DNA from: Escherichia coli
Lineage (GTDB): Bacteria; Pseudomonadota; Gammaproteobacteria; Enterobacterales; Enterobacteriaceae
Assembly: GCF_003018255.1 (NCBI RefSeq)
Contig: NZ_CP027440.1
Length of the DNA stretch: 64,000 nt
Reading direction: 5' to 3' (one strand)
The notes under the pieces are model-generated. The model saw only the letters and a program-made list of their open reading frames with translations, made no database searches and was not told the DNA's origin. Shown here in pieces: positions 7,268-64,000 of the stretch. The position numbers and the translations under genes are program-made. Each line of letters begins with the position of its first letter. Position 1 is the stretch's first letter.

Positions 7268-8242
7268 TCAACTTTCTGAGACAGATTCAGTTAAAGGTTT
7301 TTCTGGTTTTGCTCTGACTGCAATGACCACGCCAACCACTAACAGCGCGATACCGCTTAGCGTCATTAGCGGCGGCATTTGCTGGCGTAACAAAAAGGTG
7401 TACAGCAAGCCTGCCAGCGTTTCGAAAACAATCAGCGGCCCGAGAATCACTGTCGGTAATCGCTGGCTGGCGACGTTCCAGCAGAGTGCGCCAACCCATG
7501 AGCAAAGCACGGCTATCGCAACCATCAGACTAATAAACACCAGCGGACGGGGGCCAAAGGGTAGGGAGAAGCCCGGCGTTTGCGTATTCAGCCAGTAACA
7601 GGCGACGAGATAGCCGATGAGAGAAACCGGCAGCGTGACCAGCGCCTGCGCCGTCGCCCACATCATCGGATGTTTGTCGGGATTCTCCCGCAGCCAGCGG
7701 GCGTTGCGCAGGGCATACCATGCCCAGCAGACCACGGAAACTAACGCCAGCACGATGCCAGAGGTATAACGTGCCCAGTCAAAATCGGGGAGTCCGTGGT
7801 TTAACTCAGCAATATTCACACACGCCAGGCCGATGCCAATACAAACCAGTGCCGGGGCGAGTTTTCCCCACGCGAGTTTGCCGTCGCGCTGGCTATAAAG
7901 CAGATTGGCAAAAACGGGAATCACCACCGGCAGGGTGCCAATAATCATCGTGGAAACAGGCGCGCCAGTACGTTGAATGGCACTGGCAAGGCAGAAGTAA
8001 TAGATGAGGTTGCCCATCATGGTGAGCATCAAGGCGGTAAGCCAGTCGCGACGCGCCAACTGACGCAGACGCACGCGTCCCAGCCAGGCAATGGGCAGCG
8101 CAATTAACCCTAACGCCAGATAACGCCCCATCGACTGCAACATCGCCGGGTATTCCGGCACGATCAACGGCCCGACAAAAATAAGCCCCCACATCAACCC
8201 TGCTAACAGGGCGTACAGCACGCCGCTAATCATTACTGGCAT
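7268..8242 (-). CDS. ytfF: DMT-superfamily inner-membrane transporter YtfF
   Basis: 324-aa hydrophobic ORF; true start may be the internal ATG at 8233 (remembered length about 321 aa). Confidence 0.75.
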   Translation of the reverse strand: MPVMISGVLYALLAGLMWGLIFVGPLIVPEYPAMLQSMGRYLALGLIALPIAWLGRVRLRQLARRDWLTALMLTMMGNLIYYFCLASAIQRTGAPVSTMIIGTLPVVIPVFANLLYSQRDGKLAWGKLAPALVCIGIGLACVNIAELNHGLPDFDWARYTSGIVLALVSVVCWAWYALRNARWLRENPDKHPMMWATAQALVTLPVSLIGYLVACYWLNTQTPGFSLPFGPRPLVFISLMVAIAVLCSWVGALCWNVASQRLPTVILGPLIVFETLAGLLYTFLLRQQMPPLMTLSGIALLVVGVVIAVRAKPEKPLTESVSES

Positions 8243-59441: not shown

Positions 59442-60542
59442 GTGATAATCATAAGATATCTGGTGCGGGAGACGCTCAAAAGCCAGCTGGCGATACTCTT
59501 CATCTTGCTTTTGATCTTCTTCTGTCAAAAGTTAGTGAGGATCCTCGGCGCAGCGGTTGACGGCGATATTCCGGCGAATCTGGTGCTCTCCCTTCTCGGG
59601 TTGGGCGTGCCGGAAATGGCGCAGCTTATCCTGCCATTAAGCCTGTTCCTCGGGCTGCTGATGACGCTGGGCAAACTGTATACCGAAAGTGAAATTACGG
59701 TAATGCATGCCTGCGGCCTGAGCAAAGCGGTTCTGGTGAAAGCGGCAATGATCCTTGCGGTATTCACGGCAATCGTCGCGGCGGTTAACGTGATGTGGGC
59801 GGGACCGTGGTCATCGCGTCATCAGGATGAAGTGTTAGCAGAAGCGAAAGCGAACCCTGGCATGGCGGCGCTGGCGCAAGGGCAATTCCAGCAAGCGACT
59901 AATGGCAGCTCGGTGCTGTTCATCGAAAGCGTTGACGGCAGCGATTTCAAAGATGTGTTCCTCGCGCAAATTCGACCAAAAGGTAATGCACGTCCTTCTG
60001 TGGTGGTGGCCGATTCCGGACATTTAACCCAGCTGCGCGACGGCTCCCAGGTCGTCACTCTCAACCAGGGAACGCGCTTCGAAGGCACTGCACTGTTACG
60101 TGATTTCCGCATTACGGACTTCCAGGATTATCAGGCGATCATTGGTCACCAGGCGGTGGCGCTCGACCCGAACGATACCGACCAGATGGACATGCGCACA
60201 TTGTGGAACACTGACACCGATCGTGCCCGTGCAGAACTGAACTGGCGTATCACGTTGGTATTCACCGTGTTTATGATGGCACTTATGGTCGTACCGCTGA
60301 GCGTGGTTAACCCGCGTCAGGGACGCGTACTGTCGATGCTGCCAGCCATGCTGCTGTATCTACTTTTCTTCCTGATCCAGACCTCCCTGAAATCGAACGG
60401 CGGTAAAGGTAAGCTGGACCCGACGCTGTGGATGTGGACCGTTAACCTGATTTATCTGGCTTTGGCGATTGTTCTCAACCTTTGGGACACCGTGCCGGTC
60501 CGCCGCCTGCGCGCCAGTTTTTCGCGTAAAGGAGCGGTGTGA
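59442..60542 (+). CDS. lptF: LPS export ABC transporter permease LptF
   Basis: 366-aa ORF, GTG start, MIIIRYLVRETLKSQ. Confidence 0.9.
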   Translation: MIIIRYLVRETLKSQLAILFILLLIFFCQKLVRILGAAVDGDIPANLVLSLLGLGVPEMAQLILPLSLFLGLLMTLGKLYTESEITVMHACGLSKAVLVKAAMILAVFTAIVAAVNVMWAGPWSSRHQDEVLAEAKANPGMAALAQGQFQQATNGSSVLFIESVDGSDFKDVFLAQIRPKGNARPSVVVADSGHLTQLRDGSQVVTLNQGTRFEGTALLRDFRITDFQDYQAIIGHQAVALDPNDTDQMDMRTLWNTDTDRARAELNWRITLVFTVFMMALMVVPLSVVNPRQGRVLSMLPAMLLYLLFFLIQTSLKSNGGKGKLDPTLWMWTVNLIYLALAIVLNLWDTVPVRRLRASFSRKGAV

Positions 60543-61624
60543 TGCAACCTTTTGGCGTACTTGACCGCTATATCGGTAAAACTATTTTCACCACCATCAT
60601 GATGACGCTGTTCATGCTGGTGTCGCTGTCGGGCATTATCAAGTTTGTCGATCAGCTGAAAAAAGCCGGGCAGGGGAGTTACGACGCGTTAGGCGCAGGA
60701 ATGTATACCTTGCTGAGCGTGCCGAAAGATGTGCAAATCTTCTTCCCGATGGCGGCTCTGCTTGGGGCGTTGCTTGGTCTTGGGATGCTGGCGCAGCGCA
60801 GCGAACTGGTGGTGATGCAGGCTTCTGGTTTTACCCGTATGCAGGTAGCGCTGTCGGTGATGAAAACCGCCATTCCACTGGTCTTGCTGACGATGGCGAT
60901 TGGCGAATGGGTCGCGCCGCAGGGCGAGCAGATGGCGCGTAACTACCGTGCGCAGGCGATGTACGGCGGCTCGTTGCTCTCTACCCAGCAAGGCTTATGG
61001 GCGAAAGATGGCAACAACTTCGTCTACATTGAGCGGGTTAAAGGTGACGAGGAGTTAGGTGGCATCAGTATTTATGCCTTTAACGAGAATCGTCGTCTGC
61101 AATCCGTACGTTATGCCGCTACCGCGAAGTTTGACCCGGAACATAAAGTCTGGCGTCTGTCGCAGGTTGATGAATCTGACCTGACCAATCCGAAACAGAT
61201 TACCGGTTCGCAGACGGTGAGCGGCACCTGGAAAACCAACCTCACGCCAGACAAACTGGGCGTGGTGGCGCTGGACCCGGATGCACTCTCCATCAGTGGT
61301 TTGCACAACTACGTGAAGTATCTGAAGTCGAGCGGTCAGGATGCCGGACGTTATCAGCTCAACATGTGGAGCAAAATCTTCCAGCCGCTATCCGTGGCGG
61401 TGATGATGCTGATGGCGCTGTCGTTCATCTTTGGCCCACTGCGTAGCGTACCGATGGGCGTGCGTGTGGTCACCGGTATCAGCTTCGGTTTTGTCTTCTA
61501 CGTACTGGACCAGATCTTCGGCCCGCTGACGTTGGTTTATGGCATCCCGCCGATCATCGGCGCACTGTTGCCAAGCGCCAGCTTCTTCTTAATCAGCCTG
61601 TGGCTGTTAATGAGAAAATCGTAA
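60542..61624 (+). CDS. lptG: LPS export ABC transporter permease LptG
   Basis: ORF track frame 60539..61624 (GTG); ATG at 60542 gives 360 aa MQPFGVLDRYIGKTIF; start overlaps the lptF stop. Confidence 0.9.
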   Translation: MQPFGVLDRYIGKTIFTTIMMTLFMLVSLSGIIKFVDQLKKAGQGSYDALGAGMYTLLSVPKDVQIFFPMAALLGALLGLGMLAQRSELVVMQASGFTRMQVALSVMKTAIPLVLLTMAIGEWVAPQGEQMARNYRAQAMYGGSLLSTQQGLWAKDGNNFVYIERVKGDEELGGISIYAFNENRRLQSVRYAATAKFDPEHKVWRLSQVDESDLTNPKQITGSQTVSGTWKTNLTPDKLGVVALDPDALSISGLHNYVKYLKSSGQDAGRYQLNMWSKIFQPLSVAVMMLMALSFIFGPLRSVPMGVRVVTGISFGFVFYVLDQIFGPLTLVYGIPPIIGALLPSASFFLISLWLLMRKS

Positions 61625-61632
61625 TCTAACAA

Positions 61633-61660
61633 GGGAGCGAAAGCTCCCTTTATTATTGTT
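61633..61660 (+). terminator. intrinsic terminator after lptG
   Basis: GGGAGC-gaaa-GCTCCC followed by TTTATTATTGTT. Confidence 0.7.
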
Positions 61661-61688
61661 GACAAAGTCAAATACGAGTTCGAACGGT

Positions 61689-61725
61689 CCCCTCGCCCCT
61701 TTGGGGAGAGGGTTAGGGTGAGGGG
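61689..61725. repeat. boxC-like GC-rich intergenic repeat (copy 2, lptG-yjgR spacer)
   Basis: CCCCTCGCCCCTTTGGGGAGAGGGTTAGGGTGAGGGG; minus-strand ORF 61537..61728 (PLTLTLSPKGRGD) is just its translation. Confidence 0.6.
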
Positions 61726-61742
61726 CACAGATCACGTCTGAC

Positions 61743-63245
61743 TTATCTTTTTCTCCCCCCCAGCAAACTCCCCAACATCCCGCGTACAATCTGATTCGTC
61801 ACCTGGCGAGCGGCGCTTTTCGCCATTGTTTGCACCACACCATCTTTCTTCCCGCCGCGTGGTCCGGTAGTGCCAAACAAAATATCCTTCAATCCACCAA
61901 GAATACCGTCATCCACCGCCACCTCTTTCCCTTTCACGGGGGGATTATTTTGCTGCTCGGTACTGGCCTGAAAGCCTTTTTGCAGCATCTCATAGGCGGA
62001 CTCGCGGTCCACCTCATCTTCATATTTGCCATACACCGGGGAGTGATTAATCAGGCCATTACGCTCATCTTCCGTCACCGGCCCCATTCGCGAACAAGGT
62101 GCGATCACCATCGCCCGTTCCACCACAGAAGGACTCCCTTTTGCATCGAGAAACGAGATTAACGCCTCGCCGGTCCCCAGTTCCTGGATTGCCTTTTCGG
62201 TATCAAATGCCGGATTGGCCCGCATGGTTTGCGCCGCAGCTTTTACTGCTTTCTGATCTTTGGGCGTAAAAGCCCGCAAAGCGTGTTGAACACGATTACC
62301 GAGCTGCCCGAGCACATTATCCGGAATATCAGACGGGTTTTGCGAAACGAACCAGACGCCCACGCCTTTTGAGCGAATAAGCCTTATCACCTGCTCAATC
62401 TTATCCAGCAGTACCTGAGGCGCATCGTTAAACAGCAGATGTGCTTCGTCGAAGAAAAACACCAGTTTTGGTTTCTCCAGATCGCCCGCTTCAGGCAATT
62501 GTTCATATAACTCTGAAAGCATCCACGGCAGGCTGGCGGCGTACAGTTTCGGCATCTGATAAAGTTTCTCGGCGCTGAGGATATTGATAACGCCTTTACC
62601 GTTGGCATCGGTGCGCATCCAGTCTTTGATATCCAGCATCGGCTCACCAAAGAAGTGTGCTGCGCCTTGCTGTTCCAGCGACAGTAATCCGCGCTGGATG
62701 GCACCAACCGATGCGCTACTGATATTTCCGTACTGATTCTGGAAGGATTTGGCGTTATCGCCGATGTACTGGGTAATCGCCCGCAAATCTTTAAAGTCGA
62801 GCAGCAACAATCCCTGATCGTCCGCAATGCGGAAGATAATATTCAGCACGCCAGATTGCACATCGTTGAGATTCAACAGTCGCGCCAGCAACAGCGGCCC
62901 CAGATCCGAAACCGTCGCCCGCACCGGGTGGCCTTTCTCGCCAAAGATATCCCACACCACCACCGGATTAGCATGAGGTTGCCAGTCATTTACGCCGATA
63001 TTTTTAAGCCTTGCGAGCAGTTTTTCCGAAGAAGTACCTTCCTCCGCTACTCCCGTTAAATCACCTTTCACATCGGCCATAAACACCGGCACGCCGATTT
63101 CAGATAGAGACTCTGCCAGTTTTTGCAGCGTAACGGTTTTACCCGTCCCCGTTGCGCCAGTAATCAGCCCGTGACGATTCGCCATTCCCGGCAATAAAAA
63201 CAGTTCTGTGTCCGACGTGCGGGCAATTAACAGGGGTTCGCTCAT
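61743..63245 (-). CDS. yjgR: DUF853-family P-loop NTPase YjgR (HerA/FtsK-like ATPase fold)
   Basis: ORF 61743..63293; start [38 protein letters not shown] at 63245 (ggagg SD) gives 500 aa; Walker A GATGTGKT. Confidence 0.85.
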
Positions 63246-63330
63246 GAGATATCCTCCAGTTTCCTGCCTGGAGTATAGGCAACGGCTGCGCACTCTTCAC
63301 CGCTAAATTCAGCAGATTGCGAGACGCCTT

Positions 63331-63367
63331 CCAAAGAGATTTAAACGCCGGGCGACAGGCACCCGGC
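63331..63367 (-). terminator. candidate terminator after ahr
   Basis: GCCGGG-cgacaggca-CCCGGC hairpin followed on the minus strand by a U-rich stretch (gtttaaatctcttt). Confidence 0.4.
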
Positions 63368-63374
63368 AAAGGGA

Positions 63375-64000
63375 TCAGAAGTCGGCTTTCAGAACCACGC
63401 GGTAGCGCGCTTTACCATCGCGTACATGCTGGATAGCGTCGTTAATTTTCGACATCGGGAACAGTTCGGTAGTCGGCGCAACCTTGCTGCGGGCGGCAAA
63501 GCGCATCAGCTTACGCAGCTCATAAGGCGTGCCGGTAGCAGAACCAGAGACGCTGCGGTCGCCCGCAATTAACGTAAAGGCCGGAACAGACAGCGGCGTG
63601 AGAACCGCACCGACCGTATGGAAATTACCGCCATACGTCAGCGCCTCAAAATAAGGCTGCCAGTCGAGGCTGACGTTGACGGTGTTGATAATGAGATCAA
63701 ACTGCCCCGCCAGTGCTTTGAGTGCCTGCGGATCGCGGCTATTCACCACTTTATCGGCACCCATCGCCAGTACTTCCTGCTCTTTCGCCGGATTAGAACT
63801 AAAGGCTGTCACCTCGCATCCCATTGCGTGCAGAAGTTTTATAGCGATATGCCCCAGCCCGCCAATACCAATCACGCCGACGCGGCTGGTGGCAGTGATA
63901 TGGTGCATCAACAGTGGTTTAAAGACCGTGATACCGCCGCACAACAGCGGCCCAGCAGATTCAATGTCGATATTTTCTGGCAGTGGGATTACCCATTGCC
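63375..64000 (-). CDS. ahr: NADPH-dependent aldehyde reductase Ahr (YjgB), Zn-dependent MDR family; 5' end beyond window
   Basis: Open frame continues to the window edge; C-terminal Rossmann region [16 protein letters not shown] and ending [10 protein letters not shown]. Confidence 0.8.

Follow-up and report, generated by a model that had tools for sequence, protein, structure and literature searches.

The window, by which we mean the whole stretch of 64,000 nucleotides of Escherichia coli DNA analysed here, ends in 6.4 kb that carry five genes: pepA, lptF, lptG, yjgR and a partial ahr (Table 1). The last is represented by its 3' 626 nt, which correspond to the last 208 codons and terminate in a stop codon at 63375-63377. 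Pfam assigns YjgR to HerA_C (E = 7e-252) and Ahr to ADH_zinc_N, and both proteins are close to their K-12 counterparts, with 98.8% identity for YjgR (487 aa aligned) and 100% for Ahr (207 aa).

Table 1. Features of the ahr-yjgR junction in the window, and content of the same interval in other Enterobacteriaceae
Sequence	Feature	Position	Strand	Basis
Window	pepA	57664-59175	-	ORF list
Window	lptF	59442-60542	+	ORF list
Window	lptG	60539-61624	+	ORF list
Window	yjgR CDS, 500 aa, HerA-like C-terminal domain / DUF853 ATPase	61743-63245	-	ORF list, BLAST, Pfam, RefSeq homologous loci
Window	ahr-yjgR intergenic spacer, 129 bp, idn-less allele, most probably native	63246-63374	-	sequence, strain comparison
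Window	Shine-Dalgarno GGAGGA of yjgR	63252-63257	-
Window	yjgR-proximal block common to both alleles	63252-63284	-	idn-less/idn+ junction alignment, E. coli, E. albertii, Citrobacter
Window	palindrome CTCCAG-N8-CTGGAG	63254-63273	-
Window	TATACT, possible -10	63272-63277	-
Window	90-bp segment specific to the idn-less allele	63285-63374	-	BLAST breakpoints vs K-12
Window	hairpin, 9-bp stem and 5-nt loop, then U-rich stretch	63346-63368	- (gene strand)	folds, terminator scan
Window	ahr 3' part, NADPH-dependent aldehyde reductase, runs off the window end	63375-64000	-	BLAST, Pfam
E. albertii	no gene, ~130-bp spacer
Citrobacter werkmanii	no gene, ~136-bp spacer
Citrobacter sp. FP75	idnK-idnD-idnO-idnT-idnR
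Enterobacter cloacae DSM 26481	Dak1/Dak2 dihydroxyacetone kinase gene	L008 8217-9863
Enterobacter sp. Ag1	Dak1/Dak2 dihydroxyacetone kinase gene	L009 8224-9930

The spacer between ahr and yjgR

In the window, yjgR and ahr are co-oriented and contiguous, with no gene between them. A reading of this DNA made from the sequence only had described about 130 bp with a hairpin between the ahr stop and the yjgR start, and the interval measures exactly 129 bp. It had also claimed that the idn (L-idonate) genes are absent from this place, which is borne out by BLAST against K-12 and by a tblastn search (E <= 1e-20) in which the five Idn proteins of K-12 served as queries: no idn gene is detected in the 64-kb window, the count for the GntII / L-idonate locus (idnK, idnD, idnO, idnT and idnR) being 0/5.

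The hairpin begins 7 nt past the ahr stop codon, its stem combines seven G-C and two G-U pairs, and the sequence 3' of it, UUUAAAUCUCUUU, provides an interrupted U-tract. The local fold reaches -17.2 kcal/mol (z = -2.78; equal stability in 1 of 200 shuffles), and the hairpin is reported by the terminator pattern scan. A hairpin occupies the corresponding position in E. albertii, O157, O111 and C. werkmanii; both partners of one pair have changed, so that the covariation amounts to a single pair among five sequences. We regard this structure as the probable intrinsic terminator of ahr, as predicted from its fold and position. In K-12, the hairpin that follows the ahr stop is a different one (GCAGCGC...GCGCUGC, -14.9 kcal/mol), situated within the 3' end of the convergent idnK.

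On the yjgR side, GGAGGA stands just before the ATG (63245-63243), and the block common to the alleles with (idn+) and without (idn-less) the idn genes extends as far as CGTTGCC, which reaches position 63284. From the TATACT hexamer we would infer only a possible promoter (-10) region in this block, the consensus scan giving no minus-strand promoter near the hexamer. The palindrome of Table 1 overlaps both the Shine-Dalgarno sequence and TATACT, and it is kept in E. albertii, in Citrobacter as CTCCA...TGGAG, and in the idn+ as well as the idn-less alleles; possible roles are those of an operator or of a 5'-UTR hairpin masking the ribosome-binding site. The whole spacer would accordingly read as a stem-loop most likely ending ahr transcription, followed by the upstream region of yjgR with its ribosome-binding site, palindrome and possible -10. 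Rfam yields no family in 61500-64000, its single chance match (E = 0.84) lying outside the spacer.

The idn cassette of K-12 and its frequency in E. coli

The gene order given for K-12 in the sequence-only reading is found in NC_000913.3 (MG1655), where yjgR-idnR-idnT-idnO-idnD-idnK-ahr is followed by leuX. The nucleotide identity of the window with K-12 (BLAST) is 98.1% from pepA to lptG, 94.4% in yjgR and 95.5% in ahr. The homology ends at 63284, 39 nt upstream of the yjgR ATG, and restarts at the ahr stop at 63375, so that 90 bp of the window (63285-63374) face 5,087 bp of K-12 (L001 8104-13190) at the same place. This K-12 insert is the idnR-idnT-idnO-idnD-idnK cassette. The two loci are therefore alike in that the same interval is flanked by yjgR and ahr, with leuX next in K-12, and unlike in that five idn genes occupy it in K-12 and a 90-bp native spacer segment with the ahr hairpin in the window. 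Short-word BLAST against shuffled controls reveals no homology above chance between the 90 bp and the cassettes of K-12 and Citrobacter sp. FP75, the best cassette score (20.3 bits) falling between the mean (19.3) and the 95th percentile (22.3) of the shuffles.

The cassette has a G+C content of 47.3% for 53.8-55.6% in the flanks. No integrase and no IS lie between yjgR and ahr in K-12, the cassette ends have no terminal direct or inverted repeats, and none of the marks of a mobile island (integrase or transposase, flanking repeats, tRNA attachment site at the ends) is found in it; the word "island" previously applied to this site does not hold in the mobile-element sense. In the K-12 gap between idnR and yjgR, which measures 77 bp, folding gives no terminator-like structure, and as a consequence the expression of yjgR may differ between the idn+ and the idn-less alleles, a suggestion drawn from the sequence comparison.

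The limits of the cassette may be slightly narrower than the BLAST breakpoints. A 12-mer, TCTCTTTGCCGG (gene strand), lies directly 3' of the ahr stop in the idn-less alleles of O157 and O111, its counterpart in the window being TCCCTTTGCCGG, and the same TCTCTTTGCCGG also closes the K-12 insert on the yjgR side (L001 8105-8116), just ahead of the shared CGTTGCC. If these copies are homologous, it is plausible that the cassette proper would be 5,074 bp inserted exactly after the ahr stop, and likewise plausible that the idn+ allele would in addition lack 78 bp of spacer (63285-63362), a stretch to which the 3' arm of the hairpin belongs.

The distribution of the two states was examined in 5,426 complete E. 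coli genomes. A contiguous yjgR-ahr junction, seen as a single BLAST place spanning both genes, is present in 3,212 of them (59%), the idn cassette in 2,055 (38%) and other interval states in about 3%, percentages that are not natural population frequencies since laboratory K-12/B derivatives and clinical isolates are over-represented in the collection. The 90-bp segment occurs in 3,222 of the 5,426 genomes and is 95-100% identical in 3,103; that of the window is 100% identical in AMSHJX01, and the complete 129-bp spacer is 100% identical in M7424 and about 94-99% identical across E. coli. The idn-less junctions of O157:H7, O111:H- 11128, M7424 and JNE23-011 have the same spacer as the window, with point differences only. 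O157:H7 and O111:H- exemplify the idn-less state, and K-12, BL21, HB101 and CFT073 the idn+ state. The cassette is at least 99% identical to that of K-12 in 1,973 of its 2,055 carriers and, throughout the 5,426 genomes, is always chromosomal (0 on plasmids) and present at no more than two places per genome. As yjgR and ahr are matched as two separate places in ~2,050 genomes, a number equal to that of the carriers, the cassette, when present, always sits in this interval.

The expectation that idn genes should stand between yjgR and ahr is thus correct for the K-12 order and misleading for the species, in which the idn-less state, with its ancestral-type spacer, is the majority (3,212 vs 2,055 of 5,426). 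The site had also been called a known variable one, and rightly so: the states differ among the strains of the collection, and idn is described as accessory in pangenome papers (PMC8545132, PMC10269509), with idn carried by 83% of the pks-positive genomes and by 31% of the pks-negative ones, and with variation within ST95 (PMC8545132). The idn presence/absence polymorphism is already known, and the arrangement of the window is ordinary for E. coli.

As regards function, the GntII / L-idonate pathway is said to have been defined by Bausch et al. in 1998 (J Bacteriol 180:3704). PMC3251573, which cites that work, assigns the pathway (IdnD, IdnO, IdnK, IdnT, IdnR) to idnK idnDOTR. By analogy with this established K-12 pathway, the strain is predicted to be unable to catabolise L-idonate via IdnD/IdnO/IdnK. 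The import of this prediction hardly exceeds the description of the strain; L-idonate use is a nutrient trait that has been connected, in Salmonella, with fitness in the gut (PMC6138749). In E. coli, associations of idn with certain clades and with persistence have been described (PMC8545132, PMC10269509), the operon being over-represented in persisting isolates from meat plants (PMC10269509).

Two irregular loci deserve mention. In AHM8C160RI (L003 9544-9779), ahr is reduced to a 236-bp pseudogene and the yjgR-proximal idn-less spacer is kept, which constitutes a third interval state. In MLI104K2 (NZ_CP116925.1, about 4259860-4260580; L004 8440-9160), ~0.7-0.9 kb of poly-C, poly-G and poly-T separate yjgR from ahr, although RefSeq classes the genome as "complete"; the annotation lists a hypothetical protein and a LacI-family pseudogene there. 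This genome was considered as a deletion intermediate, with decayed idnR/idnT remnants fused to idn-less sequence, and rejected as such, the sequence being homopolymer junk almost certainly produced in assembly or polishing.

Origin of the idn-less allele

The outgroups come from a YjgR scan of the genome collection, which gave at least five Enterobacteriaceae loci among the matches listed. The spacer of the window aligns over its full length with those of E. albertii and C. werkmanii, in which a hairpin lies at the corresponding place, and the three have in common a well-conserved block after the hairpin, CTCGCAATCT...AATTTAGCGGTGAAGAGTGC...GTTGCCTATACTCCAGGCAGGA. In Citrobacter sp. FP75, the cassette has the same boundaries as in K-12, namely the same edge on the yjgR side and an insert starting from the ahr stop codon; the K-12 and FP75 sequences are 76-85% identical in the cassette and 80-86% identical in the flanking genes.

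The idn-less spacer would apparently be the ancestral sequence and the cassette an insertion that replaced part of it, K-12 being the insertion carrier, because E. albertii and C. werkmanii share the spacer, hairpin included, because the 90 bp cannot be matched to the cassette above chance, and because the G+C content of the cassette is below that of the flanks. This polarity rests on few outgroups, and the idn+ allele also exists in Citrobacter and idnD in Salmonella, where it is STM4484, serovar Typhi being devoid of idnDOTK (PMC6138749). The occurrence of the cassette with identical boundaries in FP75 makes the insertion an old one, the presence of an idn+ FP75 beside an idn-less C. werkmanii implies that both alleles segregate in Escherichia as in Citrobacter, and the idn+ allele of Citrobacter taken with the Salmonella idnD indicates that both alleles are old.

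The reading we propose, with a probability of about 0.9, is that the 129 bp are the native ahr-yjgR spacer and that an old and common presence/absence polymorphism is represented in the strain by its idn-less allele. In the idn+ allele (K-12, CFT073 and others), a cassette of ~5.1 kb made up of idnK and the divergent idnDOTR operon directly follows the ahr stop, where it would have taken the place of 78-90 bp of spacer, hairpin included. Homologous recombination within the conserved flanks would then carry both alleles from one lineage to another, as the mosaicism of these flanks suggests. With K-12 as the insertion carrier and the idn-less allele as the common ancestral type, the absence of idn would be neither a deletion nor the marker of an unusual strain.

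A deletion of idn in this strain or its recent ancestors is what the K-12 order would naively lead one to expect, and other lesions do occur at the site, such as the ahr pseudogene of AHM8C160RI. Against it, a deletion cannot create sequence that is absent from the idn+ alleles and without homology to the cassette, which means that the 90 bp are not a leftover of such an event, and the same spacer is common to 3,212 E. coli genomes, E. albertii and C. werkmanii; we hold a de novo deletion to be very improbable. The reading in which idn genes would reside elsewhere on the chromosome or on a plasmid of the strain draws on the fact that the window covers 64 kb only and on an APEC plasmid that carries a distantly related idonate-like operon, though one with no DNA homology to idn (PMC3251573). 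Such a copy is excluded only by population arithmetic, that is, by the confinement of the cassette to at most two chromosomal places in each of the 5,426 genomes and by the match between 2,055 carriers and the ~2,050 genomes in which yjgR and ahr are split, which leaves it scarcely credible. That the adjacency could result from a collapse of the cassette during assembly is brought to mind by MLI104K2, a public "complete" genome with junk at exactly this site. The window itself is clean, its spacer and its 90-bp segment are 100% identical to those of M7424 and AMSHJX01, respectively, and thousands of independent assemblies have the same arrangement, and we consider an artefact here extremely unlikely.

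The history of the lineage may have been less direct, in that it could once have been idn+ and have lost the cassette by homologous replacement with an idn-less allele, the absence then being secondary and the sequence nevertheless of ancestral type. Local mosaicism makes this plausible: the window presents a recombination mosaic at exactly this place (JNE23-011-like to ~62750, the spacer bin being that of M7424), flank haplotypes are uncoupled from the idn state, the idn state varies between clades within ST95 (PMC8545132), and nearly all idn-less genomes have the standard spacer instead of idiosyncratic deletions. On the other hand, JNE23-011, the closest complete genome, is idn-less as well, no idn+ close relative was identified, and no sequence feature separates a lineage that never had the cassette from one in which it was replaced. 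A replacement is possible, if on balance doubtful.

The mildly interesting point is the coexistence, in two genera, of empty and idn alleles with identical boundaries. According to the lineage, the yjgR-ahr cargo is empty, the idn cassette or, in Enterobacter, the Dak1/Dak2 kinase gene, and no mobile-element gene is present in the idn (K-12), Dak (Enterobacter) and empty states inspected. Could yjgR-ahr be a multi-allelic cargo site devoid of mobility machinery, where empty and idn alleles persist in both genera? We put this forward tentatively, as a rather speculative reading. The Escherichia-Citrobacter divergence of the cassette about equals that of the flanking core genes. If the reading were true, the presence/absence polymorphism would be balanced and would predate the separation of the genera, or it would result from repeated inter-genus exchange via the flanks, and the multi-allelic site could help to explain the deep diversity of yjgR and ahr. 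As in the accessory "spots", or HGT hotspots, flanked by core genes of Oliveira et al. 2017 (PMC5635113), alternative cargo is lodged between two conserved genes in different lineages; yjgR-ahr would differ from those hotspots by its few allelic states and by the lack of mobile-element genes in the states inspected.

Mosaic flanks and the leuX neighbourhood

The closest complete genome, JNE23-011, is 99.8% identical to the window over 24.6 kb and is likewise idn-less. A sliding comparison gives about 100% identity to it up to ~62750 and 95-98% beyond, to the window end, ~62750 being a recombination breakpoint relative to JNE23-011; the bin that contains the spacer (63251-63500) is 100% identical to M7424. 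By comparison with other idn-less E. coli junctions, the yjgR and ahr alleles of the window are uncommon: the best match of its yjgR in the collection is 98.8% identical and that of a 1-kb junction query (62800-63800) 97.1%, most genomes being at 90-95%.

Among five idn+ strains compared by 250-bp bins, the cassette differs by 0-1.4%, yjgR by 3.4-7% and ahr by 3-6%. No association is seen between flank haplotype and idn state, the within-group and between-group identities being equal, with a slight departure over the final 150 nt of ahr. Linkage would have pointed to two ancient haplotypes, each joining a flank type to an idn state, and it is not seen. The absence of association also bears on the claim that the strain is not K-12-like, which is accurate at this locus and says little about the strain. 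A recent clean switch between AMSHJX01 (idn-less) and 2014C-4423 (idn+) was rejected as well: the two share an identical 689-nt yjgR tract, but their remaining flanks differ, which amounts to mosaicism only.

In yjgR nt 101-350 (window 62896-63145), the diversity within E. coli equals the divergence between E. coli and E. albertii. The window allele has 17 differences with E. albertii and 23-30 with O157/O111/K-12. The alleles of M7424, JNE23-011 and TCM_B_2 group there with that of the window, the four together giving 13-17 differences in 250 with E. albertii and 22-32 with O157/O111/K-12. As the proteins are still 97-99% identical, the excess flank diversity is mostly synonymous.

The diverse and mosaic flanks fit the position of the locus, which, at ~4.49 Mb in K-12, lies inside the leuX-fim recombination hotspot, a region of ~200 kb with phylogenetic incongruence (4421-4618 kb in K-12; Touchon et al. 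2009, PMC2617782). The window shares with this hotspot the mosaic, hyper-diverse core flanks to be expected there, and it differs from it by its cargo, idn being a small metabolic cassette without integrase, one gene from leuX, and no tRNA-integrated island. In JNE23-011 and five other idn-less E. coli loci, the annotation shows no idn past ahr; there, ahr is followed by leuX and then by an integrase gene that is intact, truncated or absent. In eight related loci (L002, L085, L087-L092), ahr precedes the tRNA-Leu gene leuX, beyond which each locus has an integrase-led island of its own; P4-like genes, AbiE toxin-antitoxin genes with a MobH relaxase, and Dsr2 are among the contents of these islands. 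We take leuX, one gene beyond ahr, to be the classical variable island site of this neighbourhood.

On the other side of yjgR, the lptG-yjgR spacer contains, at 61688-61726, a G/C-rich palindromic intergenic repeat, CCCCTCGCCCCTTTGGGGAGAGGGTTAGGGTGAGGGGC, which may resemble the small enterobacterial intergenic repeat families. No bin varies more among the idn+ strains than this spacer (10% differences), which aligns only partly between strains. Enterobacter cloacae has a motif similar to the repeat immediately 3' of ahr (L008, near 8140-8190). Finally, the 3' part of ahr (63374-63768) accounts for four matches of the junction query on E. coli plasmids, one of them, on the plasmid NZ_CP172870.1, being annotated as "zinc-binding dehydrogenase" with 94.9% identity over 395 bp, which indicates, at the level of nucleotide matches, a fragment or a copy of ahr on plasmids.
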